From NCBI GenBank assembly GCA_964581255.1, contig CAZOMT010000034.1:3865-67864 (forward strand): a stretch of 64,000 bases of DNA, in the 5' to 3' direction. The position numbers and the translations under genes are program-made. Under the pieces are notes generated by a model, which did not search any database, was not told the origin of the DNA, and worked only from the letters and a program-made list of their open reading frames with translations. Of the stretch, positions 11,313-61,984 are shown one piece after another. Source of the DNA: an uncultured Thermodesulfatator sp. Its GTDB lineage: Bacteria; Desulfobacterota; Dissulfuribacteria; Dissulfuribacterales; QOAL01. How positions within the stretch are numbered: position 1 is the first letter of the stretch; every line of letters begins with the position of its first letter.

Positions 11313-11774
11313 ATGAAGATTACCACGAGAAGCAGATACGGCACCAGGATGATGGTAGAACTTGCTGCCAACTTTCACAAAGGTCCAGTTCAGGTGGGAG
11401 AAATAGCAAGGAAGGAGAACCTGTCTGTAAAATACCTGGAACAGCTTATCATTCCCCTTAAACGCACAGGCCTCATCAAGAGCATCAGAGGGGCCAGAGG
11501 TGGCCACTTGCTTGCAAGGGCACCAACTGACATCACGGTATGGGACATAGTTGCCGCACTTGAGGGAGAGGAAGGCGTCACGCCATGTGTTGCATATCCA
11601 GAATGGTGTGACAGGAGCAAGACCTGCCCTACCAGAGATGTCTGGAGCATGATCACAAAGGTCTTGAAGGAACGACTTTCGTCCATAACCCTTGCAGATC
11701 TGGCTCAAAAACAGCAGCAAAGGCTTGAGGACGAAAACTATATGGAGGATGAGATATGTATACGGAACAGCTGA
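11313..11774 (+). CDS. Rrf2-family (IscR-like) transcriptional regulator
   Basis: MKITTRSRYGTRMMVELA winged-helix N-terminus typical of Rrf2. Cys residues (CVAYPEWCDRSKTC) are compatible with a cluster-binding subtype. Confidence 0.85.
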   Translation: MKITTRSRYGTRMMVELAANFHKGPVQVGEIARKENLSVKYLEQLIIPLKRTGLIKSIRGARGGHLLARAPTDITVWDIVAALEGEEGVTPCVAYPEWCDRSKTCPTRDVWSMITKVLKERLSSITLADLAQKQQQRLEDENYMEDEICIRNS

Positions 11775-12238
11775 TGCAACACTTTGCAAATCCACACAAT
11801 GTTGGCGTCATAGAGGACGCTGACGGTATAGGACAAGTGGAAAATTCTGTATATGGCGATATGGTGACCTTCTATATAAAAGTCAAAAATGACACCATCG
11901 AGGATGTCAAGTGTCAAGCCACGGGATGCATAGCTGCAATAGCAGTATCGAGCCAGGTGACAGAAATGGTCAAAGGCAAGAGCCTGTTGGAGGCCAAAGC
12001 CCTAACCCAAAAGGCAGTGGCCGAAGCGCTTGGTGGGCTCCCAAAGGACATGGTCCACTGTTTCAATCTTGGAGCAGAGGCACTGCAAAAGGCAATAAGA
12101 AATTATGAGACCTCCGCTTTCTTGACCACCTCTCCAGTGAAAAAAACCGACGTACTATACAAAAGATGTGGAAGCTGTTGGACAAAGAATTCGGTCACAT
12201 TGAATTACTGCATGTGCTGCGGTGTAAGGCTCAAATAA
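11756..12238 (+). CDS. Atypical IscU/NifU-N-like scaffold protein with C-terminal zinc-ribbon tail
   Basis: HFANPHNVG, ATGCIAAIAVSS and VHCFNLGAEAL match IscU blocks. The first ligand Cys is replaced (NSVYGD instead of CGD). The tail reads CGSCWT...YCMCCG. The gene overlaps the Rrf2 gene by 19 nt. Confidence 0.65.
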   Translation: MYTEQLMQHFANPHNVGVIEDADGIGQVENSVYGDMVTFYIKVKNDTIEDVKCQATGCIAAIAVSSQVTEMVKGKSLLEAKALTQKAVAEALGGLPKDMVHCFNLGAEALQKAIRNYETSAFLTTSPVKKTDVLYKRCGSCWTKNSVTLNYCMCCGVRLK

Positions 12239-12490: not shown

Positions 12491-14188
12491 ATGACAACAA
12501 GCAAAAGCACATGCCTCGGCAATAGAAAAGACAGATCCAGGCCAGATATTTCCTGCAGGAGCAAGGCGAAGACAAGACATAGCCTAAGGAACTTCATCAT
12601 TGCTGCATTGCTAATAAATATCTTTGCCATAATGTCCATAGGTGGAATATGCACCATGCTCGTTAAGGAAATGGCTCTGGATATCGCCAAGCTGCGCATG
12701 GAGAGCAAGTCGGTATCGAGGGTGCACAACCTGAACAACAGGACCCAGGAGGCCATCTTTCTAGCGGAAAATGCACTGGTTAAACACGACAAGGAACCTC
12801 TTGGTTATGCCATATACGTAGTCAAGGATCTGCTGGATAAGGTTTCCCTGTACAAAGAAAAAAGGATAGCCGACGACAGTTTTGGCCTTAGTGCCAATGT
12901 CCTTTACCAAAAGATTGAAGATAATCTCCAGGAAATAGACAAGAGACTAAAGGCAGCCTATGAGGAATTTTCTGGCAATAACGTCCTGGACAGGCAAATG
13001 CTAAAGGAGTTGGAAACATATGGATACAATGTCCAAAATCAGGTTCAGGCCATAAATGCCATAAGTTTCAGAACCATTGAAAAGCAGGTCGAGGATTCCA
13101 ACAACAAGATGTACTACATCTTGTTCATGTATCTTACCTCCTGTTTCTTGGGCATTGTGGCTTCATGCACTGGCTATATTTTGCTGATGCGGAATGTGGT
13201 ACGTCCTGTCATCACTCTGGCCTATGCCACAGAAAGAGTCGCCGAAGGAGATCTGTCGGCAAGGGTTTACGCAACCACCAGGACCGAGATAGGCACCCTC
13301 TATGAAGCCTTCAATTCCATGACTGCAAGACTCCAGGAACACGAAAAAAGGAGGGAGGAATTCAGTAGAGAGCTCGAAAGAAAGGTGAAAGAACGCACCG
13401 CTGAACTCAAGGCATCCAAGGACTCTCTCAAAAAGGCCCAGAAGGAATTGATCCGCATGGAAAAAATAGCCACTTTGGGCCAGATAGCCACCAGTGTCAA
13501 CCACGAAATAAAAACTCCACTAAACGTGCTTTACATGAACCTGCAACTGTTGAACAAAAAGATAAAAAAGTGCAGTCCTGGCCTACAAGACTGTTCAAAA
13601 GACATGCTGAATCTTACAAACCTCATAAATAAAGAGGTCGTCAGGATCAATGAAATTGTCGAAGAATTCGTAAATTATGCGCGCTTTCCTTTGCCAGACA
13701 TAAAAGGGAACGACTTGAACAAGATCGTGCAGGATATAGCTGAGATGATCGAACAAAAGGCCACGGCTGCCAATGTTCAGGTTGAGACACAGCTGGATGA
13801 CTCCCTTGGGATCATCCTTCTTGACGATAAAAAGATCACCCAGGCACTCCTGAATCTGTGCATGAACGCCTTGCAGGCCATGCCTTCAGGAGGAAAACTG
13901 CTCATAGAAACTAACCATATAGGATCTGCAGCAATAGTAAAGGTCTCAGACACTGGCACAGGTATTTCAGCCAAGGATATGGACCGGATATTTCAGCCAT
14001 TTTTCACTAAAAAGGCCCATGGGACAGGCTTTGGACTGGCCATCGTACAGAGGATAGTGGAAGACCACGGCTGGACCATCAGTTGCAAAAGCAATGTAGG
14101 CACAGGCTCTTCATTTATTATTCAAATCCCTTTCAAAAAGGCTAAAGACCAGGAGGACCATGACCAAACCCACAGTTTTGATAGTTGA
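12491..14188 (+). CDS. Sensor histidine kinase (2 TM, extracytoplasmic region, HAMP, HisKA, HATPase)
   Basis: H-box SVNHEIKTPLN and a G-box region (DTGTGI...GTGFGLAIV). Two hydrophobic segments flank a loop of about 170 aa. The exact start is uncertain. Confidence 0.85.
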   Translation: MTTSKSTCLGNRKDRSRPDISCRSKAKTRHSLRNFIIAALLINIFAIMSIGGICTMLVKEMALDIAKLRMESKSVSRVHNLNNRTQEAIFLAENALVKHDKEPLGYAIYVVKDLLDKVSLYKEKRIADDSFGLSANVLYQKIEDNLQEIDKRLKAAYEEFSGNNVLDRQMLKELETYGYNVQNQVQAINAISFRTIEKQVEDSNNKMYYILFMYLTSCFLGIVASCTGYILLMRNVVRPVITLAYATERVAEGDLSARVYATTRTEIGTLYEAFNSMTARLQEHEKRREEFSRELERKVKERTAELKASKDSLKKAQKELIRMEKIATLGQIATSVNHEIKTPLNVLYMNLQLLNKKIKKCSPGLQDCSKDMLNLTNLINKEVVRINEIVEEFVNYARFPLPDIKGNDLNKIVQDIAEMIEQKATAANVQVETQLDDSLGIILLDDKKITQALLNLCMNALQAMPSGGKLLIETNHIGSAAIVKVSDTGTGISAKDMDRIFQPFFTKKAHGTGFGLAIVQRIVEDHGWTISCKSNVGTGSSFIIQIPFKKAKDQEDHDQTHSFDS

Positions 14189-15509
14189 TGATGACAAAAT
14201 GACCAGAAATACCCTGTCACTTGCACTGGAAGAAGACTACTCCACTTGCACGGCAAACGATGGGATCGAGGCCTTGAAACTTCTCAAGCAAAAGGCTTTT
14301 GATATTGTACTGTCTGATCTGGACATGCCAGGAATAGACGGGTTGAAGCTCCTGGAAAAGATCGGACAGATGGAAAACAAGGTGCCCTTGATAGTGATTA
14401 CAGGACAAGGGACCATTGAAAGTGCTGTTCAGGCTATGAAATCAGGGGCCTATGACTTTGTTACCAAACCCGTGAACCTTGACCGGCTCGGCCTACTCAT
14501 GGAAAAGGCCCTCGAGAACAAACGCCTCAAGGAAGAAAATCTCTTGCTCAAAAAGAAGATCAAGGAGAGCTTTCCAGAACTCAAATTCATAGGTCGTTCT
14601 GAAGCCATAAGAAAGTGTGAGGATCTTGCCATGCAAGTGGCCTCTACCAAGGCCACGGTCTTGATCGAAGGCGAATCTGGCACAGGCAAGGAACTTATTA
14701 CAAACATAATCCACTACAACAGCCCAGTGGCCCATGGGCCCTTTATCAAGATCAATTGTTCAGCCTTTTCTGAAAGTCTGCTCGAATCTGAACTTTTTGG
14801 CCATGAGAAAGGTGCCTTTACAGGGGCCTTCAAAACCAAGAGAGGCCGTTTTGAATTGGCGGACCAGGGTACATTATTCCTGGATGAAGTAGGAGAAATG
14901 CCCCTGTCCACCCAGGTGAAACTGTTGAGGTTTTTGCAAGAACGCACCTTTGAAAGGGTGGGGGGCACCAAGACCCACAAAGTGGATGTCCGGCTCATCT
15001 CTGCCACAAACAGAGATCTGGCAAAGATGGTCAAGGAAGGCAAATTCCGGGAAGATCTCTACTACAGGCTGCGTGTGGTCAGAATAGTGGTGCCTCCCCT
15101 CAGAGATCGTAAAGAGGACATTGACGATCTCGTCCACAATTTCATCAAGAGATTCTCGGGCCTTCATGGCAAGCCTATTTCCGGGATATCGAGGGATGCC
15201 ATGGAGTTGATGCGCTCATACAGGTGGCCTGGAAATGTCAGAGAGCTTATGAATTGTATAGAAAGCGCCGTAGTCATGGCTAAAACCGATTTCATCGATG
15301 TGGATGATATCCCAGAATACCTGTCGGACAACTCCAGTCAGGCTGAGACAGGCGGCAGCGGCCTGGGTCTCATCCAGGAACTTGAGCGAAAGGCAATAAT
15401 AGAAACACTCGAAAAGACCAAGGGAGACAAGGTCAAGGCTTCGCGGATTCTGGGTATTGGTTTAAGAACCCTCTATAGAAAAATAGAGAAGTGGGAAATA
15501 GACACTTAA
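14160..15509 (+). CDS. Sigma-54-dependent response regulator (NtrC/AtoC class)
   Basis: Receiver domain (VLIVDDD...DLDMPG), AAA+ domain (GESGTGKE, GAFTGA) and a C-terminal Fis-type HTH. It overlaps the kinase gene. Confidence 0.92.
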   Translation: MTKPTVLIVDDDKMTRNTLSLALEEDYSTCTANDGIEALKLLKQKAFDIVLSDLDMPGIDGLKLLEKIGQMENKVPLIVITGQGTIESAVQAMKSGAYDFVTKPVNLDRLGLLMEKALENKRLKEENLLLKKKIKESFPELKFIGRSEAIRKCEDLAMQVASTKATVLIEGESGTGKELITNIIHYNSPVAHGPFIKINCSAFSESLLESELFGHEKGAFTGAFKTKRGRFELADQGTLFLDEVGEMPLSTQVKLLRFLQERTFERVGGTKTHKVDVRLISATNRDLAKMVKEGKFREDLYYRLRVVRIVVPPLRDRKEDIDDLVHNFIKRFSGLHGKPISGISRDAMELMRSYRWPGNVRELMNCIESAVVMAKTDFIDVDDIPEYLSDNSSQAETGGSGLGLIQELERKAIIETLEKTKGDKVKASRILGIGLRTLYRKIEKWEIDT

Positions 15510-15612: not shown

Positions 15613-15628
15613 TGGCACGTAAATAGCA
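15613..15628 (+). promoter_or_regulatory. Sigma-54 (-24/-12) promoter
   Basis: TGGCACGTAAATAGCA against consensus TGGCACG-N4-TTGCW. The GG and GC are at the exact canonical spacing, with one mismatch in the -12 element. It lies 57 nt upstream of the ATG at 15685 and directly downstream of a sigma-54 activator gene. Confidence 0.6.
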
Positions 15629-15684: not shown

Positions 15685-15912
15685 ATGAGACATACAATTA
15701 CAGACGCAAAGGTTAAAACGAGAACACAGGAACGAGTGTCTGATGCAACACGGGCAGAAGATACAATTGTATCAGGAATAATGACTATTGGTGGCACGGT
15801 TGCTTTCCTGATTGGACTTTGGGCTGCTGCCTGTGTCGTTGGAGGCCTCATAGCTGCCGGCGGACCAATACAATTCGTGAAGAGCTGGTTTTTGGCAGTT
15901 TCAGGCGGTTAA
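15685..15912 (+). CDS. Small (75-aa) hypothetical membrane protein
   Basis: ATG preceded by AAGGGGG about 8 nt upstream. The N-terminal third is charged, followed by a long hydrophobic stretch (IMTIGGTVAFLIGLWAAACVVGGLIAAGG). No family was recognised. Confidence 0.45.
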   Translation: MRHTITDAKVKTRTQERVSDATRAEDTIVSGIMTIGGTVAFLIGLWAAACVVGGLIAAGGPIQFVKSWFLAVSGG

Positions 15913-16078
15913 GGGAAAATTAAAAAGGCGATGGCACCAAGTTGGCGTCATCGCCTGGATCAAGGTACACCGGACGAGGCACCAACTGTTATTCTGTTGA
16001 AGACATAGAGGAACTATAATGTGGCCGTTATAAGATATCTTATTTAATCTCAAGCAGGAAAGTGACATAGATCATAAC

Positions 16079-17965
16079 GTGGTATTTTTTATTCGCTCAA
16101 TCTTCGCTTTATCTGTTATTTCACTTGTTATCGGCGGTATACTGCTGGTTCATAATGTTGAAAACCGCATTCCAGAAGTCAGCTACAACGAATTCCTCGA
16201 ATCCTTGGATAAAAACGAGATAGTGGAAGTTCAATTGAAAGGCAACATCATCTCATACAAAGATTTTTCCGGAAGGAGTTTCGCCACTTTTTGCCCAGAC
16301 GTAAAGGGGATCGTTCCAGATTTGGTCAAAAAGGGAATAGCAATACATGGCCAGCCGGACAAGCCTTCCCCATGGTGGAATCTGTTCTATGTTGGGCTCC
16401 CCACTATTGTGATACTACTCGCCTGGTATTCGTTCCTCAAAAAGCAAGATAAAGAGGGCTCAGATGAATTTGCCAAGGACAAGGCGGTAAAATTCAAGAT
16501 GGGGGTAAGGCCTGTCACATTCCGTGACGTTGCTGGCATCCCGGAAGTCAAGGACGAGCTTTTGGAAATAATAGATTTCTTACAAAACCCCAGAAAGTAC
16601 AGCAGGTTAGGTGCAATCATACCCAAGGGCATACTATTCCAAGGCCCCCCTGGAACGGGTAAAACCTTACTGGCAAGGGCCGTGGCAGGCGAGGCCGGTG
16701 TTCCATTCTATAGTATCAGTGGCTCAGATTTCGTGGAAATGTTTGTTGGTGTAGGGGCATCCCGTGTCAGGGAACTCTTTAGAGAAGCAAAGAAAAACTC
16801 TCCATGCATAATATTCATTGATGAAATAGACGCTGTTGGAGGACATAGAGGGACAGGCACAGGCACAGGGGGGCAGGATGAAAGGGGCCAAACATTAAAT
16901 GCGCTCCTGGTAGAGATGGACGGCTTCAGCTCGGAGCAGACAATAATAGTACTGGCTGCTACTAACCGCCCTGATATCCTTGATCCAGCACTTCTCAGGC
17001 CAGGACGGTTTGACAGGCAAATAAACATCCTTCCCCCTGATGTAAAAGGCAGACACGCCATCCTTCAAGTCCATGCCCAAAAGATATCCCTCGCAAAGGA
17101 TGTGGACCTTGAAAAGATAGCACGCTCGTGCCCTGGTTTTACAGGTGCCGAGCTTGCTGCCTTGGTAAATGAAGCTGCCATCCTGGCTGGCAGACAGGGG
17201 AAAAAGGAGGTGGAACTGACAGATTTCGAGCTGGCACAAGACAGGATAATGATGGGAGTGGAGCGAAAAGGGCTCGTCATAGGTGAAAAGGATAGAAAGA
17301 CCTTGGCCTATCATGAAGCAGGCCACGCCTTACTCGCCAAATTTCTCCCAGAAAGTGACCCTGTCCACAAGATCACCATAATCCCGAGAGGAAAGGCACT
17401 GGGCTATACCAAACAGCTTCCCATGAACGATAGGCACGCCTATTCCAAGACCTACCTTCGTAGCAGGATCATCATGCTCCTTGGGGGCAGGGCAGCCGAA
17501 GAGGTATGTCTCAACCAGCAGACCACATGCTCAGAAGACGATTTTGAACACGCCGTAGCCATTGCAATGAAGATGGTTTGCAGGTGGGGCATGGACGAGC
17601 GTATCGGCCCTGTTTCCTATTCCAGTCTCCAGGACGGCTTTCTAGGTGACCAGACAATCAGCCTCAATTACAGCGAGGAGACGGCTCGAAATATCGACCG
17701 CGAGGTGAAAAGAATAATCGACGAATGTTACCAGGAGGCTGTGGATATCCTGAGACGCGAGGAAGACTTCCTGACGTACCTGGCGGAGATCCTCCTCGTC
17801 CACGAAACGCTTGACGCCGAGGAGATGGAAATCATCTACAACTGCACCCTCAAAAGGCGCAAGGAGCGGGACAAAAGAACTAACGAAAACGTGGACCTAT
17901 TCTGTGATGTCGATTATGGAAATGCGGCTGCCGACATTCATGCGACCAAGGACAGTACATCCTGA
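16079..17965 (+). CDS. ftsH: ATP-dependent zinc metalloprotease FtsH (paralogue)
   Basis: Two TM segments flank an extracytoplasmic domain. Walker A GPPGTGKT, Walker B IIFIDEID, zinc site HEAGH. GTG start. Confidence 0.9.
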   Translation: MVFFIRSIFALSVISLVIGGILLVHNVENRIPEVSYNEFLESLDKNEIVEVQLKGNIISYKDFSGRSFATFCPDVKGIVPDLVKKGIAIHGQPDKPSPWWNLFYVGLPTIVILLAWYSFLKKQDKEGSDEFAKDKAVKFKMGVRPVTFRDVAGIPEVKDELLEIIDFLQNPRKYSRLGAIIPKGILFQGPPGTGKTLLARAVAGEAGVPFYSISGSDFVEMFVGVGASRVRELFREAKKNSPCIIFIDEIDAVGGHRGTGTGTGGQDERGQTLNALLVEMDGFSSEQTIIVLAATNRPDILDPALLRPGRFDRQINILPPDVKGRHAILQVHAQKISLAKDVDLEKIARSCPGFTGAELAALVNEAAILAGRQGKKEVELTDFELAQDRIMMGVERKGLVIGEKDRKTLAYHEAGHALLAKFLPESDPVHKITIIPRGKALGYTKQLPMNDRHAYSKTYLRSRIIMLLGGRAAEEVCLNQQTTCSEDDFEHAVAIAMKMVCRWGMDERIGPVSYSSLQDGFLGDQTISLNYSEETARNIDREVKRIIDECYQEAVDILRREEDFLTYLAEILLVHETLDAEEMEIIYNCTLKRRKERDKRTNENVDLFCDVDYGNAAADIHATKDSTS

Positions 17966-18015
17966 ACAACAAATACTGAGGCGACCTTCATGATTTGGTC
18001 CGTAAATCCCCATTT

Positions 18016-19506
18016 ATGGCTCTGGCAATGAACAGTATCTTTTTCCCAAAGATTTTTCAAAAGGGGATCAACTGGGTCTCAAGGAGCAAGATATCAGTCA
18101 CTGGCAGCATAATAGTGGCCATTTTATTGCCAGTTCTTAGCATATCTTTCACGTTTGACTATTTCGGATTTATCCAAAACCCCTATTTCGGATTTCTTCT
18201 TTATGTATTTATGGCCCCACTGTTTGTCTTGGGCCTCATACTCATATTCGTGGGTACGGTATTGAGGCCTGGCAGGGAGGATCTGGGCATATACACCTTT
18301 GAATATTTCAAGGAACAGCTTTCCAGGCCAGGCCGGTACACAAGGGTCCGCAGGCTCATCTATTTCACCATCGGGATAACCCTGTTTTGCTGCTTTCTGG
18401 TGGGGATGGTGTCCTATGGAACCTTTCGCTACACGGCTTCCAACAGTTTCTGTGGCCAGTTCTGCCATCAGGTTATGGCACCGCAATACACCGCATATAA
18501 AAATTCTCCTCATTCCAAGGTGGCATGTGTTGAATGCCATTTTGGAAAAGACGCTACGTGGGCAGAACGGTCGAAGTTTACAGGCATCAAACAGCTCTTT
18601 GCAGTTACCACAAATTCTTACAGCAGACCTATTCTTTCTCCTATCAAGGCCCTGCGTCCTGGTCGGAAGACCTGCGAAGAATGCCATCGTCCAGAAAAAT
18701 TTAAGGGCCTCATGCTCTACATTAAGGACGGATTCCTGCCTGACAAGAACAATACCCGGGTCCAGACAATCATGATTATGAAGGTGGGATCAGGGGATGT
18801 GGCAGGCAGCCCAGCACACGGCATCCATTGGCATGTTTCAGAAAATCAGCAGGTCTTCTACAGGGCAGCAGACAGGGGCAGGGATATAATTACAGAGGTC
18901 AGGGTTGTGGAAAAAGGGAAAAAGGATGTGGTCTTCGAACGAATCCAAGGCCTTGATAGTCAAGGGTTCCCGCAGACGGGCCTAGTGGATGGCAGTCTTT
19001 TGAGAAAGATGGATTGCGTGGATTGCCACAATAGGCCTACCCATATCTTTCTCCAGCCAGACGAGGCTTTGGACAGGAAAATAGCTGAGGATAGCATTCC
19101 CCGTTACCTGCCCTTTATAAAAACTCAGGCATTAAAGGCCATAACCGGGGATTTCCCCTCGGTCAAGGTTGCCCGCGTCCAGATATCAAGACAGCTTCAG
19201 GAGTGGTACCGCAAGAATTATCCAGACCTCATACAAAAGAATCCGGGATTATTGGAAAGGGCCATTCAGGGAACCATTGAGGCCTATGAGGAAAACGTTT
19301 TCCCAGAAATGAAGGTCACCTGGGGCACATATAAAAACTTTCTGGGTCATTCTGATGGCTCCGGATGTTTTCGATGCCATGGAAAGCTCAGAGAGAGGAA
19401 AACCAAAAAGGTCATAAGCAGCGACTGCAATCTCTGCCACGTTGTTTTGGCAAAGGACCAAGTAAGGCCTGATATCCTGAAGATCTTAAAGGGAGTCCTT
19501 CTTTGA
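18016..19506 (+). CDS. Membrane-anchored NapC/NirT-like multihaem cytochrome c (paralogue 1)
   Basis: Three N-terminal hydrophobic helices. Five CXXCH motifs (CVECH, CEECH, CVDCH, CFRCH, CNLCH) plus one CX3CH (CGQFCH) inside a NapC-like block FCGQFCHQVMAPQYTAYKNSPH. The start is set at the first ATG, since the track uses an upstream TTG. Confidence 0.8.
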   Translation: MALAMNSIFFPKIFQKGINWVSRSKISVTGSIIVAILLPVLSISFTFDYFGFIQNPYFGFLLYVFMAPLFVLGLILIFVGTVLRPGREDLGIYTFEYFKEQLSRPGRYTRVRRLIYFTIGITLFCCFLVGMVSYGTFRYTASNSFCGQFCHQVMAPQYTAYKNSPHSKVACVECHFGKDATWAERSKFTGIKQLFAVTTNSYSRPILSPIKALRPGRKTCEECHRPEKFKGLMLYIKDGFLPDKNNTRVQTIMIMKVGSGDVAGSPAHGIHWHVSENQQVFYRAADRGRDIITEVRVVEKGKKDVVFERIQGLDSQGFPQTGLVDGSLLRKMDCVDCHNRPTHIFLQPDEALDRKIAEDSIPRYLPFIKTQALKAITGDFPSVKVARVQISRQLQEWYRKNYPDLIQKNPGLLERAIQGTIEAYEENVFPEMKVTWGTYKNFLGHSDGSGCFRCHGKLRERKTKKVISSDCNLCHVVLAKDQVRPDILKILKGVLL

Positions 19507-19700
19507 TGAATTTTTAACACATCCGATGAATTAAGGCCTCCTTATTATTCCGGGAATGACGTGTCTGCCGTCCGGTAATCATATCCCTCAAAATTAATTG
19601 GATATGCATGGCGTGGTCTGCCCCAACGGAAGCGGGCCACTCTGTTGGCCGTGCCTTGAAAATATCACAGGAAAAAGGAAAGAGAGAGGAGATATAATCT

Positions 19701-21134
19701 ATGGCATTTGAAAAAAACGATCAAAGTGAAAACAGATCTCCACACAGACACAGAAGCGCCTGGGGCCATATCATAAGAGGGCTCTGGCGTACCCCTTTGG
19801 GCATAATGAGTGTGGTGCTCACCACCATAAGTGCCACCCTCATGGTCCTTGGCATAATCGCAGACCTGCTGGGCTTATTCCGCAATCCTTATGTGGGGGT
19901 ATGGATCTATATGATCTTTCCCATATGTATGGTGGCTGGCCTTTTATTAATTCCCATCACTGCATACCTGCGCCGTCGCCAATGGCATAAATCCGGTGTG
20001 GAAAAAAAGCCCCTCAAGCTCAATCTCAGCAATCCCAAGCATCGCTGGTTCCTAGTGGGTTTTATCGTATTGACTGTTGTCAATGTAGCGATATTCGGAT
20101 TTGTAGGCTATGAAGGTTACCATTTCACAGACTCTCCATATTTTTGTGGCATGGTCTGCCACCAGGTCATGGCGCCTGAATACACAGCCTATCAACGGTC
20201 TCCCCATTCAAGGGTGTCATGTGTGGAGTGTCACATAGGCCCTGGTGCTGAATGGTTCGTCAAGGCAAAGATATCGGGTCTGCGGCAGGTATATGCCGTT
20301 GTAACCAACAGTTATGCCAGGCCCATCCCTACACCTGTCGAGGCATTGCGTCCAGCCAGGGATACATGTGAGACATGCCATTGGCCAGAGAAATTCTACG
20401 GGAAAAAGGTCAAAAAATTTTATACAACCGAGGGCAATGAGACAGAGCCTCAACAAACAGAGATATCCCTGCACATTGGAGGGCGCAATCCAGTAACCAA
20501 ACAATTTGAAGGCATACACTGGCATGTCAGCAAAGACGTTCAGGTCGAGTACCTGGCAGTGGATGAAAAGCGCACCAAGATTGCAAAGGTGAGAATAAAA
20601 ATGGCAGACGGCACTTCTGACGAATTCATCAAATCGGATATGGAACCGGAAAATGGCTATAAACCAAAATGGCGGGTTATGGATTGCATTGACTGTCATA
20701 ACCGTCCCACTCATATCTATTCCATGCCAGAAGAAGTAATAAACTTTGGCCTCCTCAGTAAGGACATCGATCCTGCAATTCCAGGCATAAGACAAGATAG
20801 CCTGGCTGTCCTCACAAAGATGTATGATAGCAGAAAGCAGGCAAGAGAAAGGATGATTGCGGATCTCATGGCCCTTCAGAAACAGCGTAACATCCAAGCG
20901 GCCTCTGCTCACAAACCCGGGATAGAACGGGCAGGACAGTATCTTCTCAAGGCATACCTGGAGAATGTGTGGCCTGCCAACAAGGTGTTTTGGGGCACTT
21001 ACAAAAGCCATCTGGGACATCAGTGGAGTGATCAAGGCTTTGGGTGCTGGAGATGCCACGATGAAGAGCACATAAATTCGAGAGGGGAAGCAATTTCACA
21101 AGATTGTAGCCTGTGCCACGACGAACCAGAATGA
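19701..21134 (+). CDS. Membrane-anchored NapC/NirT-like multihaem cytochrome c (paralogue 2)
   Basis: Same architecture as paralogue 1: CGMVCH (CX3CH), CVECH, CETCH, CIDCH, CWRCH, CSLCH, with N-terminal TM helices. The two proteins are colinear. Confidence 0.8.
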   Translation: MAFEKNDQSENRSPHRHRSAWGHIIRGLWRTPLGIMSVVLTTISATLMVLGIIADLLGLFRNPYVGVWIYMIFPICMVAGLLLIPITAYLRRRQWHKSGVEKKPLKLNLSNPKHRWFLVGFIVLTVVNVAIFGFVGYEGYHFTDSPYFCGMVCHQVMAPEYTAYQRSPHSRVSCVECHIGPGAEWFVKAKISGLRQVYAVVTNSYARPIPTPVEALRPARDTCETCHWPEKFYGKKVKKFYTTEGNETEPQQTEISLHIGGRNPVTKQFEGIHWHVSKDVQVEYLAVDEKRTKIAKVRIKMADGTSDEFIKSDMEPENGYKPKWRVMDCIDCHNRPTHIYSMPEEVINFGLLSKDIDPAIPGIRQDSLAVLTKMYDSRKQARERMIADLMALQKQRNIQAASAHKPGIERAGQYLLKAYLENVWPANKVFWGTYKSHLGHQWSDQGFGCWRCHDEEHINSRGEAISQDCSLCHDEPE

Positions 21135-21142
21135 GATGTGAT

Positions 21143-21189
21143 TGCCTTACGGCCCTGGACCCTTGAATATGCCCCAGGGCCGTAAGGCA
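21143..21189. terminator. Long perfect hairpin between convergent genes (probable terminator)
   Basis: TGCCTTACGGCCCTGG - 15-nt loop - CCAGGGCCGTAAGGCA: a 16-bp perfect stem with no clear U-run. It lies between the cytochrome (+) and phoU (-) 3' ends. Confidence 0.5.
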
Positions 21190-53735: not shown

Positions 53736-55445
53736 TCAGAGCACCTTTACCTTTGAAAACTCCCTCTTCTCTGGATCGAGAAGGTGAACAGCGCAAGCTA
53801 TGCATGGATCAAAGGAATGAACAGTCCTGAGAACTTCCAGGGGCCTTTCTGGTTGCGCAACAGGGTTTCCCTTGAGCGAGGATTCGTAGGGCCCCATGAA
53901 ATCCTTCGAACATCTTGGGCTTACATTCCAAGTTGAAGGCACTACACACTGGTAATTTTTTATTCTGCCATCCTGTATCACTATCCAGTGAGAAAGGGCG
54001 CCGCGAGGGGCCTCGTGAAAACCAAAACCCCTGATCTCACCTGAGGGAAATTCTGGAGGATTCTTGTAAGGATATATCTCAAGGTCTCCCATGCCGATAT
54101 TCTTCGTGAGAAGATCCAGATGTTTCAGTGCATAGTCTGCTACCATAGAGGCCCTTATGGCCCTTGCGAGATGGCGCCCAGGAGTGGATTGCAGGGCACC
54201 GACTCCCACCTTCACACCTGCTATCTCAGACACCTTTTTCAAGGAAAGCTCTACCCACTTCTTCGTTGCCTCATGACCGCTTACGTATCCCACAAGAACC
54301 TGGGCAAGAGGTCCTACCTGCATGGGCTGTCCGTTGAATCTAGGCGCCTTGGCCCAGGAATACTTTCCCTTCTCCTGAAAATCCGTATAATCGGGTACAG
54401 TCTCTTCGTTCCATGGGTGTCTGGTCCAGTCACCTTTGTACCAGGAATGCACGATGGATTCCGCCACGTTGTCCCTGAAGTATTTATCATTAAAGGAAGT
54501 AATAGGCGTGAAGTCCTTCAGCTCCTCTCCAAAAATCGTCCCTCCAGGAAGGTCGAACCGCGTGCCTTTGGAATCAAGTGGCAAATCAGGCACGGCTAGG
54601 TAGTTGGTTACCCCCTTCCCATAAGCCAGCCACTGCTTATAAAGGGCACCTATGGCTATAACATCGGGCAAGTACACCTGGTGCACGAATTGTCTCACTT
54701 CCTCGAGCAACTGACGCGCCTGCATCAGCTTGTCCATGTTCAAGGTTGCAAGATTATCGAGATTTATAGCCAGGGCAACTCCGCCTACTATCACTGTTTG
54801 GATGTGTGGATTCTTGCCACCGAAGATAGCCACCACCTGGTCGGCCTTGCGCTGATAATCCAGAGCCTGAAGATAATGGGACACGGCCATAAGGTTCGCC
54901 TCTGGAGGCAGCTTCATTGCTGGGTGGCCCCAGTAGCCATTGGTGAAGGGACCGAGCTGACCACTGGAAACAAGTGCCTTAAGCTTGGACTTTACGGCGG
55001 CAAAGCGGCTTTTGCCATTGTCTGGCCAAGGAGATAAGGACTGGGCAAGCTCCGCTGTCTTTCCTGGGTCTGCGTCCAGGGCGGAAACCACATCCACCCA
55101 GTCAAGGGCTGAAAGCTGATAGAAATGCACTATGTGATCATGCATCGCATGGGCACACAGTATTATGTTTCTGATGTATTGGGCATTTATGGGAATGCCG
55201 ATTCCAAGGGCATTCTCCACTGCCCTTACCGATGCTATCGCGTGAACAGTGGTGCAGACGCCGCAAATTCTCTGGCAGAAGGCCCACGCATCCCGTGGGT
55301 CCCTGCCTTTGAGTATGACTTCTATCCCCCGCCACATCTGGGGAGAGGCCCACGCATTCGTGATGCTGCCACCATCCACTTCCACATCTATTCTCAAATG
55401 GCCCTCTATTCTGGTGATTGGATCAACGGTGATCTTGGTAGCCAT
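53736..55445 (-). CDS. [NiFe] hydrogenase large subunit (group 1, uptake type)
   Basis: N-terminal RIEGH...QRICGVC and C-terminal DPCIACAVH, followed by a cleavable 15-aa extension. Confidence 0.95.
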   Translation of the reverse strand: MATKITVDPITRIEGHLRIDVEVDGGSITNAWASPQMWRGIEVILKGRDPRDAWAFCQRICGVCTTVHAIASVRAVENALGIGIPINAQYIRNIILCAHAMHDHIVHFYQLSALDWVDVVSALDADPGKTAELAQSLSPWPDNGKSRFAAVKSKLKALVSSGQLGPFTNGYWGHPAMKLPPEANLMAVSHYLQALDYQRKADQVVAIFGGKNPHIQTVIVGGVALAINLDNLATLNMDKLMQARQLLEEVRQFVHQVYLPDVIAIGALYKQWLAYGKGVTNYLAVPDLPLDSKGTRFDLPGGTIFGEELKDFTPITSFNDKYFRDNVAESIVHSWYKGDWTRHPWNEETVPDYTDFQEKGKYSWAKAPRFNGQPMQVGPLAQVLVGYVSGHEATKKWVELSLKKVSEIAGVKVGVGALQSTPGRHLARAIRASMVADYALKHLDLLTKNIGMGDLEIYPYKNPPEFPSGEIRGFGFHEAPRGALSHWIVIQDGRIKNYQCVVPSTWNVSPRCSKDFMGPYESSLKGNPVAQPERPLEVLRTVHSFDPCIACAVHLLDPEKREFSKVKVL

Positions 55446-55454
55446 TGTCGCCTC

Positions 55455-56558
55455 CTATTCTTCCTCTTTCTTTTCTGTGGAACATCTCAAGGAAAAGATC
55501 TTTTTCCCTATCCCTACTGCGGCATGAGCTGCTATGACTGCTGCTGCACCGCCCACGGCCACCTTGCCAATCTCCTCGGCCTGCTCCCTAATGCCTCCTC
55601 CGACAGGTATGTATATACCAGGCAGGTGTTTGTAGATTGGAGTCATGGTGTCCCAAAAACCCGGCTCTGTGCAACCAATGCAGCCGTGGCCTGCCCCCAC
55701 TGGCCAGACGCCAATATTACAAAAACGCTCCACAGAACAATTTGAATATGTGACAGGCCCTTTGCAGCCCACTTTATAGAGACAGTAGCCCTTTTTGTGG
55801 CCAGGATCTCCAAATCTTTCCACAAATCGGCCTTCGTCGAAATGAGGTCTTCTTTCACAGTGGTCGTGGATCTTTCTGCCATAAGCGAATTTGGGCCTTC
55901 CAAGCTCATCCAACTCGGGTGGACGCCCATAAGTGAGTATCTGAACGACAGTTGCCAAGAAGTTCTCGGGATTTGGCGGGCAACCAGGTATATTGATGAT
56001 GGGCCTGCCCTTTATCAGATCCTGTACCCCCACGGCACCTGTGGGGTTGGGTTTTGCTGCCTGGACACCGCCAAAGGCGCCGCAAGTGCCTATGGCAATG
56101 ATTGCCTTGGCCTTTGGTGCAACCTCACCGAGTATCTCCATGGCTGTTTTGCCACCAATCTTACAGTAAATGCCTCCATCTTTGGTTGGAATGCCCCCTT
56201 CTACTACACATATGAACTTACCGGCATTTTTGTTCACGGCATTATGGAGATTTTCTTCAGCCTGCTTTCCAGCCGCGGCCATAAGGGTTTCATGGTAATC
56301 AAGGGATATCAAATCCAGGATCAAAGTCGCTATATCAGGACGTGCTGCACGTAAGAGCGACTCTGAGCATCCGGTGCATTCCTGGAAATGAAGCCATATC
56401 ACAGGGGGCCTCTTTGGTGACATGGCTGCCTCCACCATCCTGGGCACTACATCTGGAGAAAGCCCCAAGGCTGCTGCTGCAATGGCGCAACCCTTCAAAA
56501 AGGTCCTGCGGCTGACTCCTCCTCTTGCCAATTCAATTTCTTGCTCTCTATTGGACAT
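55455..56558 (-). CDS. [NiFe] hydrogenase small subunit with Tat signal and C-terminal membrane anchor
   Basis: Tat signal SRRTFLKGCAIAAAALG, FeS Cys motifs (ECTGCSES...) and a C-terminal hydrophobic helix. The start is set at the ATG 6 nt after AGGAGG. Confidence 0.93.
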   Translation of the reverse strand: MSNREQEIELARGGVSRRTFLKGCAIAAAALGLSPDVVPRMVEAAMSPKRPPVIWLHFQECTGCSESLLRAARPDIATLILDLISLDYHETLMAAAGKQAEENLHNAVNKNAGKFICVVEGGIPTKDGGIYCKIGGKTAMEILGEVAPKAKAIIAIGTCGAFGGVQAAKPNPTGAVGVQDLIKGRPIINIPGCPPNPENFLATVVQILTYGRPPELDELGRPKFAYGRKIHDHCERRPHFDEGRFVERFGDPGHKKGYCLYKVGCKGPVTYSNCSVERFCNIGVWPVGAGHGCIGCTEPGFWDTMTPIYKHLPGIYIPVGGGIREQAEEIGKVAVGGAAAVIAAHAAVGIGKKIFSLRCSTEKKEEE

Positions 56559-56571
56559 CATCTGCCTCCTG

Positions 56572-57591
56572 TTAGAAAATTTCATCCAGAGAAAAGGGTA
56601 TAGTAAAGACTGCATCCACATAATGCCTGTCTGACAGCAGCCCTTCTTCAGCTGGCGTCAGGTTGAATTCATAGGCATATCCCAAGGTGAACCAGGGTGT
56701 TATAGGAAATCTGGCACCAATGGCCATGGTTGCGAAGTTCCTGTGCACACTGCTGTTTTCTCCACCAAGGTTTATAATATCACAACCACTGAAGGTGGTG
56801 ATGCCGGCCACTAGATCGTCTTCCTGAGGGCTTCCGAGGAATCCGGCTACTGCATGTTCAAGCCCCTTGTCTTGAATGGCCTGCCTGACGTAACCAGTGC
56901 GGTTTCCTGCCTTGATGGTGTAGAAATGGTTGATCTCAACCAGGGGATGGAAATAAGGAAGGACCTCGTAACTAAGGTGCCAGGAATCGAAAAGGGTATA
57001 ATCCTCTTCAGGCGCATCCAGCGGGATGGTCAATCCTACGGCTCCAGCCAACTCTGCCTGGCCTACCCCCTTGAGAAATAATATGGATGGTGCGATGTTG
57101 CCGTCTCCATTTCCCTGGTATACCTGGTCACTTCCGTTTGCAAATTCGTAGATAAGGCGGCCAGAAACAACCGTCTTTGTATTGGGAGAGTAATAAAATG
57201 AATATTGGATTCCTGCAGCCAGATCTACCCAGCCGTCTGTATCCTTGAGGGTATTATCCGGCCGCATATTTATATAGCCACTTTTGACAGCGAGGAAGGA
57301 TATGCGCTCATTGACGGCAACACCAGCCTGGAGGGCAAAACCGCGGACGTGGCCACCCAAAGGCAGATCCTTCATGCCCAGAGGAGCATCCACCACGGTA
57401 TCAACATGCGATGGCAGGTGTTGATACATGAAAACGGGCCTTACAAAGGTCTTATTCAATGCCCCACCCACGGTATAAACCGGGTTGCTCATGGGCATAA
57501 TGAATTGATCAAACCCATCTGCCCATGAAAGGCCACTAAACAGAAGAAACAGTGACAGCGTCAGCAATGTCATGATAGCATTACATTTCAT
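56572..57591 (-). CDS. Outer-membrane beta-barrel protein (uncharacterised), first gene of the hydrogenase operon
   Basis: Signal peptide (LLFSGLSWA/DG), alternating amphipathic strands rich in G/Y/aromatic residues, and a C-terminal ...DEIF (terminal Phe). The start is set at the ATG 9 nt after AGGAGGA. Confidence 0.6.
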   Translation of the reverse strand: MKCNAIMTLLTLSLFLLFSGLSWADGFDQFIMPMSNPVYTVGGALNKTFVRPVFMYQHLPSHVDTVVDAPLGMKDLPLGGHVRGFALQAGVAVNERISFLAVKSGYINMRPDNTLKDTDGWVDLAAGIQYSFYYSPNTKTVVSGRLIYEFANGSDQVYQGNGDGNIAPSILFLKGVGQAELAGAVGLTIPLDAPEEDYTLFDSWHLSYEVLPYFHPLVEINHFYTIKAGNRTGYVRQAIQDKGLEHAVAGFLGSPQEDDLVAGITTFSGCDIINLGGENSSVHRNFATMAIGARFPITPWFTLGYAYEFNLTPAEEGLLSDRHYVDAVFTIPFSLDEIF

Positions 57592-57836
57592 AAAAGTCAA
57601 TCCTCCTTCTCCCGGTTTCTAAAGCTTTTCACTAATCCCTGCCACTATTTCAACAAATCTTGCCCAAATACGAAAACTACAAATAACTAATTGCAATCAA
57701 AGGAAAATCTTATTTGTTTTTTTGTAATGCAATCAACGCCCAAAGGCGGTATAATTAATCATATAAATAATTACAATCGATAGCGATGCAAAATGTGTTC
57801 CAATATTATGACATTTAAAGACAAGAAAACGAGGGC

Positions 57837-58883
57837 TTGTCAGTGTCGGTAGACCTCATAGGCAAAAGCGCTGTCATACTGGAGATCAAGGACCTCATAT
57901 CCAAGGTTGCCCCTCTGGATCTCCAGGTCCTCGTAACCGGAGAAACAGGCACAGGCAAAGACCTCGTGGCCAGAATAATCCACGAAAGAAGCCCTAGAAA
58001 AAACGGCCCTTTTATCCCAATCAATTGTGGAGCCATTCCCAACACCCTTGTCGAATCTTGCCTTTTCGGCCACGAAAAAGGGGCCTTTACTGGCGCAACA
58101 GGTAGATCCAGGGGCTTTTTCGAAGAGGCCCACCAAGGCACCCTATTTCTGGATGAAATATCTGAGGGCTCGCCGGTGCTGCAGACGGCTCTCCTCAGAG
58201 TGCTCCAGGAAGAATGCTTCTTCAGGATAGGCTCAACCAGGGAACTGCAGGTCAATGTCAGGATAATCGCCGCCACAAACAAGGACCTTAAACTCGCAGT
58301 GAATGTGGGCACCTTCCGCGAAGACCTTTTCTTCAGATTGAGCGTATTTGAGATAAAACTGCCTCCGCTAAGGGACAGGGGTGACGACATCTTCCTCCTT
58401 GCATATCATTACCTGAACCGGGCAAATCAAAAATATGGAAAAAATGTCAATCGGCTTTCCAACGAGGTCGTCAGGGTATTCAAATCCTATCACTGGCCAG
58501 GCAACGTCAGGGAACTTTTTCATGTGATTGAAAGGGGTGTAGTTGTGGAAAACTCAGATGAACTCTCCATGGCGTCCATGCCGCGATACATGAAAGACAA
58601 GGGAGAATTTCAGCAAGAAAACACCAGCCAGGCCATCACAGGCGCCACTGAACAAACCAGGCCCAACAGCCTGGAAGAAGGCCTCTTTTCTCTTCCAATA
58701 AGCGAGGCAAGGAAGCGCTTTGAAAAAAGATACCTCAAAAGGCTTCTTTCAAAAACCGCTGGCAACATGTCCCTTGCTGCAGAAATTGCCGGCATAAGAA
58801 GACAGAATCTCTACAGAAAGATGCAACAGCTCAAACTCGATCCATCTTCATTCAGGACAAGAAGCAATCAGGGCAGAAAATGA
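57837..58883 (+). CDS. Sigma-54 activator lacking any N-terminal sensory domain (AAA+ and HTH only)
   Basis: Starts directly with LIGKS...VLVTGETGTGK and carries GAFTGA and a Fis-type HTH (MSLAAEIAGIRRQNLYRKM). An in-frame TAA at 57816 precludes a longer N-terminus. The start is TTG or GTG. Confidence 0.85.
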   Translation: MSVSVDLIGKSAVILEIKDLISKVAPLDLQVLVTGETGTGKDLVARIIHERSPRKNGPFIPINCGAIPNTLVESCLFGHEKGAFTGATGRSRGFFEEAHQGTLFLDEISEGSPVLQTALLRVLQEECFFRIGSTRELQVNVRIIAATNKDLKLAVNVGTFREDLFFRLSVFEIKLPPLRDRGDDIFLLAYHYLNRANQKYGKNVNRLSNEVVRVFKSYHWPGNVRELFHVIERGVVVENSDELSMASMPRYMKDKGEFQQENTSQAITGATEQTRPNSLEEGLFSLPISEARKRFEKRYLKRLLSKTAGNMSLAAEIAGIRRQNLYRKMQQLKLDPSSFRTRSNQGRK

Positions 58884-61800: not shown

Positions 61801-61984
61801 TGATGAAAGGGCCATCAAACTTGTAGAATATATCCACCTTGAACAGGTAAAAAAGATAGTGGAAATCGATACCTCCCTTTGCAGCGGTTGCGGAGCATGT
61901 ACTGCTTCATGCCCACAATTTGCTATAGGGATACCTGGATTCATGCCAGAGCAGATACTTGCCCAGATAAAGGTGATAGCATAA
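58880..61984 (+). CDS. hdrA: Large (1034-aa) double-module HdrA-like flavo-FeS oxidoreductase with in-frame TGA (59075-59077), a probable selenocysteine
   Basis: Track ORFs 58880..59077 and 59090..61984 share a frame. Read-through gives KTFPTGDCPT-[TGA]-ILSPMM, the known Sec/Cys position of HdrA. The protein has two GxGxxG motifs, two CVGS...CSxxCC motifs and four CxxCxxC ferredoxin motifs. Confidence 0.85.

Follow-up and report, generated by a model that had tools for sequence, protein, structure and literature searches.

Why would a gene for an FtsH-type membrane protease lie directly ahead of two genes for membrane-anchored multiheme cytochromes? The question arises from a 64,000-nucleotide (nt) stretch of DNA from an uncultured Thermodesulfatator sp. 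(GenBank assembly GCA_964581255.1, contig CAZOMT010000034.1, positions 3,865 to 67,864), which was analyzed at its full length and is called the window here. A preliminary description of its sequence had noted ftsH and the two cytochrome genes (cyt1 and cyt2) on one strand, downstream of a small open reading frame (ORF). It had suggested either FtsH-dependent turnover of the cytochromes or an electron-transfer route under sigma-54 control, and had likened the cytochromes to ImcH, the inner-membrane menaquinol dehydrogenase of Geobacter sulfurreducens. All the features that it named were found in the window (Table 1). Judged from the sequences of related loci, the genomic association is well founded, and the genes probably work together. 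The explanation that we consider best, which we hold tentatively and place a little short of probable, is a Desulfobulbales-specific, sigma-54-induced respiratory module, in which a quinol-oxidizing branch of ImcH type would be paired with FtsH-based quality control or turnover and with a TorE/NapE-like helper.

The association was surveyed from both sides. On the cytochrome side, 80 genome loci encoding relatives of the cytochromes (survey loci are numbered with the prefix L) were searched for the window proteins. Twelve Desulfobulbales-type loci carried ftsH within a few kb, and none of the ~60 ImcH loci from other groups had it within 10 kb; the stretch for L008 excludes the DNA 5′ of its cyt1-type gene, and that for L002 is too short to judge. 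On the FtsH side, six of nine contexts were linked to a cytochrome gene (L082, L084, L166, L167, L171, and L172) and three were not (L168–L170). The complete genome of Thiovibrio sp. JS02 carries the small gene, ftsH, cyt1, and cyt2 in an order identical to that of the window. In total, 19 Desulfobulbales loci besides the window have ftsH no more than a few kb from an ImcH-type gene, and they show at least six gene orders. The control set comprised 80 metagenome ftsH loci (825 kb), 79 of which encoded generic FtsHs at 46–53% identity, as the degenerate patterns match universal FtsH motifs; an ImcH-type gene or small gene was present at none of the 80. The preliminary description had made its idea depend on the adjacency being present in related genomes, and this adjacency is kept across the Desulfobulbales through several rearrangements.

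The commonest unit is ftsH followed directly by a cyt1-type gene, which was seen in 10 loci besides the window. Five loci have ftsH, then a pseudo-kinase gene, then a cyt2-type gene, and the orientation is divergent in three. Six architectures can be set out: (i) a small gene, ftsH, and cyt1, in some cases with cyt2 behind; (ii) ftsH divergent from two small genes, cyt1, and cyt2; (iii) two small genes, cyt2, two more small genes, ftsH, and cyt1; (iv) two small genes, ftsH, the pseudo-kinase gene, and cyt2, with overlapping ORFs; (v) a block of two small genes, ftsH, and the pseudo-kinase gene that is inverted relative to cyt2; and (vi) ftsH and cyt1 a few kb from two small genes, the pseudo-kinase gene, and cyt2. 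The overlap of the ORFs suggests an operon in the Desulfocapsa-type loci.

The linkage is kept while FtsH identity drops to 51–55% and the flanking genes differ completely, which argues for selection on proximity, with all cases coming from one order. The plainest alternative is that there is no functional link at all: FtsH would be a general housekeeping enzyme, and a coincidental neighborhood would have been inherited from a Desulfobulbales ancestor. The restriction of linked loci to a single order fits such a history, as does phoU, which is also kept ~5 kb downstream in several loci, so that some plain synteny has been retained; an unlinked FtsH subclade exists as well, and ImcH homologs elsewhere manage without FtsH. 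Simple inheritance nevertheless sits poorly with a linkage that outlives inversions, insertions, and reshuffling at that degree of FtsH divergence, and a second, unlinked FtsH in one metagenome-assembled genome (MAG) argues for a specialized copy. We hold a purely coincidental neighborhood to be quite unlikely.

Additional genes accompany the module in some of these loci. In Desulfocapsa/Desulfopila-type loci, a gene of ~310 amino acids (aa) lies between ftsH and the cyt2-type gene and often overlaps both (L013 3101–4057; L016 9027–9992; L082 2085–3014; L011 6786–7697; L020 2598–3527, minus strand). The product has N-terminal hydrophobic segments, as in a HAMP protein with two transmembrane (TM) helices, and weak HAMP/HisKA-like matches with no ATPase domain. 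No His was seen at the phospho-accepting position of its H-box-like region, LNGIINY.QLL, and these features together suggest a pseudo-kinase sensor partner. In L012 (3152–5165) and L013 (5613–7716), the cyt2-type gene has directly 3′ of it the genes for a 4Fe-4S protein like NrfC and a membrane protein like NrfD, a placement that hints at a cytochrome partnered with an NrfCD-type quinone module in some lineages. A gene for a MerR-family regulator lies 3′ of the ftsH-trailing cytochromes in four loci, two of which are named Desulfurivibrio and Thiovibrio: it comes directly after the cyt1-type gene in L035 (7236–7742), L166 (10518–10973), and L167 (10777–11226), and two genes after cyt2 in L085 (12854–13267). 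Genes for NosL and AhpC/thioredoxin are also found near the module in L166 and L167.

The protease is full length with its motifs intact, as had been read from the sequence at first. It scores 732.7 bits against the equivalog model TIGR01241 (cutoff, 600), has two TM helices plus a periplasmic domain, and contains Walker A (GPPGTGKT, aa 189–196), Walker B (IIFIDEID, aa 244–251), the pore-loop MFVG, the second region of homology (aa 295–312), and HEAGH (aa 412–416). The start codon is GTG, the sole in-frame start possible, and homologs align from residue 1; the Shine-Dalgarno sequence is poor. Its 120 best homologs are all 61–86% identical and of Desulfobulbales type, and sixteen of them sit on contigs equal in length to contigs with cytochrome hits. 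Neighbor-joining trees place the linked FtsHs, that of the window included, in a single clade with a long branch, apart from 78 generic FtsHs of diverse origin.

Nested within this linked clade is the subclade that has no cytochrome linkage, encoded at L168 7001–8881, L169 7001–8881, and L170 7001–8854. In L168 and L169 the context is ftsH-iPGM, and this unlinked subclade rules out that every FtsH of the clade is cytochrome-linked. A single MAG, GCA_049323935.1, has both a linked FtsH (L084, P0207) and an unlinked FtsH (L168, P0243), which are 61% identical and lie on separate contigs. Paralogy is therefore real in at least one genome, the bin being assumed clean. The term “paralog,” first applied to the FtsH of the window, is directly borne out in GCA_049323935.1 alone, and no second ftsH is present within the 64 kb of the window.

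We then consider what lies beside the protease. Each cytochrome has three N-terminal TM helices (by hydropathy, ~26–44, 61–79, and 114–132 in cyt1, and 35–53, 66–84, and 117–135 in cyt2), one CX3CH motif, and five CX2CH motifs, which makes six heme motifs. The CX3CH motif is located 14 residues past TM3 (CGQFCH at residue 146 of cyt1; CGMVCH at residue 149 of cyt2). The two proteins are 37% identical over 460 aa (E value, 6e-100), in line with their first description as paralogous three-TM multiheme cytochromes. Both exceed the cutoff of 24.1 bits for PF03264, the NapC/NirT N-terminal region (cyt1, 30.8 bits; cyt2, 35.5 bits). With the NrfH equivalog TIGR03153 (cutoff, 134) the scores were 44 and 50 bits, TIGR02161 gave 16.6 (cutoff, 310.6), and the TorC models were far under cutoff. 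The single-TM, tetra- or pentaheme architecture of NrfH, NapC, and TorC is absent, with three TM helices and six hemes found instead.

ImcH homologs are recognized by three N-terminal TM helices, an atypical CX3CH near the membrane domain, and between five and nine CX2CH motifs; the Geobacter ImcH has six CX2CH motifs, and homologs of other bacteria are 31.5–49% identical to it (Levar 2014; Zhong & Shi 2018). In function, the family is characterized by an oxidation of menaquinol that serves extracellular acceptors of high redox potential. With five CX2CH motifs each, the window cytochromes lie at the lower bound of this range. Our ImcH reference consisted of the first ~278 residues of the G. 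sulfurreducens protein, taken from an optically recognized supplementary alignment of Pimenta et al., which also provided the N-terminal ~280 aa of the homolog from Desulfuromonas acetexigens. In BLASTP comparisons over these N-terminal 278 residues, cyt2 is 43% identical to ImcH residues 19–276 (E value, 9e-73) and cyt1 is 35% identical (E value, 6e-52), both values falling inside the published range; over the N-terminal ~280 aa, cyt1 is 43% identical to the D. acetexigens homolog.

A His/Gln ligation of heme 1 and a conserved Lys173/Tyr188 pocket have been described for ImcH (Pimenta 2023). ImcH residues H137, H152, H161, K173, Q179, Y188, H256, and H258 align with H154, H169, H178, K190, Q196, Y205, H273, and H275 of cyt2, respectively. 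Six aligned histidines, K190, and Q196 of cyt2 are invariant among 49 homologs, and Y205 is found in cyt1 and cyt2. Taken together, the three TM helices, the CX3CH motif, the sequence identity, and the conserved ligands and pocket place both cytochromes in the ImcH family, with cyt2 assigned by sequence to the “Geobacter type” and cyt1 to the “Desulfuromonas type.” What had been an impression from architecture has thereby gained the backing of direct comparison of the sequences and of the features by which the family is defined in the literature. Family membership thus stands, but the heme count of ImcH does not carry over: the seventh heme, which is C-terminal and solvent-exposed in the Geobacter type, is missing from both proteins. 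In cyt2, 4 residues follow the last motif, CSLCH; ImcH has 507 aa, with ligand histidines up to H491.

More than 8,000 homologs of cyt2 were found, in taxa that include Acidobacteriota, Anaeromyxobacter, Desulfuromonadales, and Verrucomicrobiota, as published for ImcH. NrfH (PDB 2J7A) is the only solved relative by sequence, with an E value of 1e-4 over TM3 and the first three heme motifs. An AlphaFold2 model of cyt2, based on an alignment of 49 sequences, shows three long helices at the N terminus and is poor overall (predicted local distance difference test, 67.7; predicted template modeling score, 0.49), and a Foldseek search of this model against the PDB returned nothing under E = 1.

The N termini of the cytochromes deserve a separate description. 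Alternative starts of cyt1 lie at 17995 and 18028. A 13-codon upstream ORF (MIWSVNPHLWLWQ, then a stop codon; window 17990–18031) has a GAGG Shine-Dalgarno sequence 8 nt ahead, and its stop overlaps an in-frame cyt1 ATG (ATGA at 18028); homologs align from about residue 6. This arrangement could represent translational coupling, or the real start of cyt1 could be 18028. Cyt2 has an N-terminal cytoplasmic tail of ~33 aa. In cyt2-type proteins, these tails measure 30–40 aa in Desulfobulbales (L002–L020), as against mostly ≤20 aa elsewhere (L021–L081). Since Desulfobulbales cyt2-type copies with no ftsH seen are long-tailed too, the contrast is confounded with phylogeny, and tail length was rejected as a sign of an FtsH substrate.

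The small ORF had been treated as a mere landmark. It is instead the most constant partner in the module and the gene directly behind the predicted sigma-54 promoter. Its product begins with a polar tail rich in K, R, and T, continues with a glycine-rich helix, and ends in a conserved C-terminus (...GGP..L...WF.AV.G), and members of the family share a basic polar N-terminal tail of ~30 residues, the helix LIGLW..AC.VGG, and the same C-terminal pattern. A word-indexed homolog search returned only 2 proteins; an exhaustive search of 1.84 billion representative proteins yielded 94 clusters at 50% identity, nearly all of 66–80 aa. The family matched nothing in Pfam or NCBIfam and has no relative in the PDB, and the Pfam NapE/TorE model matched neither the window protein nor any of 60 family members at E ≤ 1. 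A locus contains between one and four small genes, which stand ahead of ftsH or of a cytochrome gene. One solitary copy, at L008 17266–17484, has a canonical U-tract terminator behind it (z, −4.8) and lies 6 kb from a cyt2-type gene, with no ftsH within the stretch examined, so a small gene can stand alone.

Sigma-54 control, raised as one of two readings at first, is well supported for the small gene by a conserved −24/−12 motif 5′ of it, beside the gene for an NtrC-type regulator that bears GAFTGA. In 10 of 13 related loci, a motif like TGGCACGTAAATAGCA (GG/GC kept, at most one mismatch) lies 5′ of the first small gene; the chance expectation at that position is ~0.001 per locus. The motif has GG at −24 and GC at −12, and the regulator has the corresponding activator domains: a receiver, an AAA+ domain with GAFTGA (read in translation), and a Fis-type helix-turn-helix (HTH). 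In the kinase, two TM helices enclose a periplasmic domain of ~155 aa, with HAMP, HisKA, and HATPase_c C-terminal of these. The kinase and regulator genes overlap by 29 nt, and orthologs of both (49–51% identity for the kinase and 67–69% for the regulator) adjoin the module in L003, L007, L014, and L084. From the sequence, we infer read-through from the small gene into ftsH and the cytochrome genes.

Within the block, the gaps measure 50 nt between ftsH and cyt1 and 194 nt between cyt1 and cyt2, in agreement with the 50 and ~195 nt first given. Position 15927, from which the block had been drawn, is not the start of ftsH; it marks the foot of a stem-loop after the small ORF. This stem-loop has no U-tract, and it may be a partial terminator that attenuates read-through or an mRNA-stabilizing hairpin; comparable hairpins are present in some related loci only. 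Inside it, at 15932–15947, lies a second, weaker sigma-54-like motif, TGGCACCAAGTTGGCG (TGGCAC...GC, two mismatches), which could serve as an internal promoter or could have arisen by chance from the stem sequence. At the other end, the perfect hairpin described as closing the block was found as stated. Its arms (21143–21158 and 21174–21189) enclose a 15-nt loop, with a folding energy (dG) of −33.9 kcal/mol and a z of −7.0, and it starts 9 nt past the cyt2 stop, between the convergent cyt2 and phoU, with no U-tract on either strand. As its arm occurs once in the window, the idea of a repeated element was rejected. A promoter and terminator scan of the window gave counts at shuffle expectation, called neither hairpin, and found no intrinsic terminator between the genes.

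This regulatory layout bears on two further explanations. The first is an envelope- or redox-stress regulon, in which the two-component system would sense membrane or periplasmic stress and induce FtsH, as a general protease of membrane proteins, and the small proteins. The ImcH-type cytochromes would be induced along with these to act as an overflow valve on the quinol pool, with FtsH not acting on them. Sigma-54 envelope-stress systems are laid out alike, and the top models for the kinase and regulator are AtoS/ZraS and AtoC/ZraR, with scores under those cutoffs. The promoter-proximal gene encodes a small protein and not a cytochrome, and the MerR-family, AhpC/thioredoxin, and NosL genes described above adjoin the module in Desulfurivibrionaceae-type loci. 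However, the tightest and commonest adjacency, ftsH then a cyt1-type gene, is also present in loci with neither a small gene nor a two-component system close by (L172 and L166), so shared regulation alone hardly explains the pattern, and we judge this regulon unlikely. In the second explanation, FtsH would act on the signaling layer: the small proteins would be MgrB/SafA-like feedback modulators of the kinase or pseudo-kinase, with a half-life set by FtsH, and the cytochromes would be the regulated output. Small genes as direct sigma-54 targets in multiple copies would suit this, as would their products' long unstructured cytoplasmic N-terminal tails, which FtsH could engage, and the His-less two-TM HAMP protein between ftsH and cyt2 in five loci. 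The ftsH-cyt1 pairs of L166 and L172, with no small gene or kinase of any sort nearby, speak against it, and the small genes of L003, L014, and L084 share the orientation of the cytochrome genes, not that of ftsH. We consider this signaling explanation very unlikely.

Table 1. Features of the ftsH-cytochrome block, in coordinates of the window
Feature	Position	Strand	Evidence
Sensor histidine kinase	12491..14188	+	Pfam HAMP, HisKA, HATPase_c; 2 TM helices by hydropathy
NtrC-type sigma-54-dependent response regulator	14160..15509	+	Pfam Sigma54_activat (243 bits), Response_reg, HTH_8
Sigma-54 (−24/−12) promoter-like motif TGGCACGTAAATAGCA	15613..15628	+	Sequence read directly; 57 nt 5′ of small ORF
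Gene for 75-aa single-TM protein	15685..15912	+	ORF, strong Shine-Dalgarno sequence, homologs in related loci
Stem-loop just 3′ of small ORF	15926..15956	+	Inverted-repeat search; dG −21.3 kcal/mol, z −4.9
FtsH-family AAA+ zinc metalloprotease, 628 aa	16079..17965	+	TIGR01241; Pfam FtsH_ext, AAA, AAA_lid_3, Peptidase_M41
ImcH-family cytochrome 1 (cyt1), 496 aa, “Desulfuromonas type”	18016..19506	+	Heme motifs, TM helices, PF03264
ImcH-family cytochrome 2 (cyt2), 477 aa, “Geobacter type”	19701..21134	+	Heme motifs, TM helices, PF03264
16-bp perfect hairpin	21143..21189		Inverted-repeat search; folding energy

Around the block, phoU and pstBACS lie 3′ on the opposite strand. Just 5′ of the kinase gene are genes that carry Pfam labels for an Rrf2-family regulator and a NifU_N-like protein (11313–12238), the latter with an additional Cys-rich C-terminal tail (CGSCW...CMCCG). 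Farther along the window, in the region 53736–61984, genes for the small and large subunits of a [NiFe] hydrogenase lie on the minus strand. A receiver-less sigma-54 activator (57837–58883), 43% identical to the regulator of the module, and a large HdrA-like Fe-S flavoprotein (59090–61984) are encoded beside the hydrogenase pair. On these sequence assignments, the hydrogenase region is a second putative sigma-54-controlled redox locus within the window. No Rfam RNA family was found anywhere in the window.

How, then, might the protease and the cytochromes cooperate? In the respiratory module that we favor, the periplasm-sensing kinase and the NtrC-type regulator would activate the sigma-54 promoter, as their domains and the conserved motif suggest. 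The promoter would drive the small gene first and then, at lower levels, ftsH and both ImcH-family genes; gene order, the short or overlapping gaps, and the hairpin 3′ of the small gene all point this way. The six-heme cytochromes, established as family members by sequence, would act as Geobacter ImcH does, taking electrons from menaquinol at an NrfH/ImcH-like heme-1 site and passing them to periplasmic carriers. The dedicated FtsH paralog would perform quality control or conditional turnover of the anchored cytochromes, of unassembled small subunits, or of both. FtsH prefers unassembled membrane subunits with free cytoplasmic tails, such as SecY and F0 subunit a in Escherichia coli, and this preference fits the N-terminal tails of cyt2 and of the small proteins. 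By its degradation of orphan membrane subunits elsewhere, FtsH would be expected to pull on these free tails. The small proteins themselves, by analogy only, may be TorE/NapE-like helpers of the cytochrome anchor or adaptors of FtsH. A bolder version can also be postulated, in which the FtsH paralog, guided or restrained by the small-protein family, installs, trims, or removes ImcH-type quinol dehydrogenases on a periplasmic signal read by the sigma-54 two-component system. Electron-transfer routes would then be switched after translation, and not only by transcription as in Geobacter; we think this rather unlikely as it stands.

Several points weigh against the respiratory module. The relation of FtsH to the cytochromes as protease and substrate is entirely inferred, and Geobacter ImcH works as the product of a monocistronic gene without FtsH or small partners. 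Seven Desulfobulbales ImcH loci have no ftsH in the stretch examined (L004–L006, L015, L017, L019, and L022), and one subclade nested in the FtsH clade has lost the linkage (L168–L170). Because all linked loci come from one order, inherited synteny adds to the signal. The small proteins do not fit the Pfam NapE/TorE profile by sequence, and the AlphaFold model is too poor to lend structural support. The closing hairpin lacks a U-tract, and no terminator or promoter call decisively separates or joins the genes.

Much of the module consists of known parts: the cytochromes add members to a known family, and the FtsH is of a known enzyme type. The preliminary description was aware of no link between FtsH and NapC/NirT- or ImcH-like cytochromes, and our literature search likewise found no paper that connects them; neither FtsH nor ImcH is mentioned in the supplements of a Nature 2025 paper on Desulfurivibrio. 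The four-part module of sigma-54 two-component system, small family, FtsH paralog, and tandem six-heme ImcH homologs is undescribed in the searchable literature.

ImcH-type cytochromes are the electron entry into extracellular or periplasmic transfer chains, and the growth yield of Geobacter, like the redox window open to it, depends on which of ImcH, CbcL, and CbcBA is used. The Desulfobulbales include sulfide oxidizers, sulfur disproportionators, iron-oxide respirers (Desulfurivibrio), and relatives of cable bacteria, and little is known of how electrons leave their inner membrane. By its conserved joining of an ImcH-type gene to a dedicated ftsH and a novel small family, the module offers a testable candidate for how such an exit is regulated or maintained, and the four gene families together provide a genomic marker for metagenome searches. 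A membrane protease gene next to that of its likely client would also be something rarely seen. Should the link be synteny only, the value shrinks to an extension of the ImcH family to six-heme tandem paralogs in a new order.

Among known systems, ImcH itself (GSU3259) is the closest to the cytochromes, by a comparison that spans its N-terminal ~260–278 residues. Shared features are the three N-terminal TM helices, the CX3CH beside the membrane, the NapC/NirT-like region, the His/Gln ligation of heme 1 with equal spacing (H137/Q179 in ImcH; H154/Q196 in cyt2), the Lys and Tyr near heme 1, and an IHWH motif. The window cytochromes differ in having six hemes and not seven, and the heme that they lack, heme 7, is the proposed exit site in ImcH. 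They are also tandem paralogs, whereas imcH is a single monocistronic gene with constitutive expression, and a sigma-54 two-component system, small TM proteins, and FtsH are encoded alongside them. Metal respiration in the manner of Geobacter is not known from the host order, though Desulfurivibrio respires iron oxide. NrfH, the solved relative, shares the PF03264 region but has one TM helix and four hemes and is paired with NrfA.

In operon layout only, the module resembles Geobacter cbcBA, in which a sigma-54 promoter is followed by small hypothetical proteins (GSU0597 and GSU3489) and then an inner-membrane cytochrome quinol oxidase, and which is activated by BccR, an NtrC-type response regulator. 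CbcBA, however, is a bc-type complex and not of ImcH type, and cbcBA has no FtsH. TorE and NapE offer a parallel for the small protein, each being a small single-TM protein encoded first in its operon (tor or nap), ahead of a NapC/NirT-family membrane cytochrome. They bind NapC/NirT cytochrome anchors, and TorE binds the TorC anchor and stabilizes a complex. The small proteins here are longer (70–80 aa, against 56 aa), have a long polar N-terminal tail and their own conserved C-terminus, and showed no detectable sequence similarity to TorE/NapE with the NapE model.

For FtsH, the relevant precedents are systems with small modulators or orphan substrates: SecY and F0 subunit a in E. coli, MgtR/MgtC in Salmonella, SpoVM in Bacillus subtilis, and the photosystem II protein D1 in cyanobacteria. 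MgtR and SpoVM are small membrane proteins. To our knowledge, the protease gene does not lie beside the substrate gene in any of these FtsH systems. In the window, a complete FtsH, with ATPase, pore loop, and HEXXH, is encoded beside polytopic and single-helix proteins predicted to have free cytoplasmic tails.

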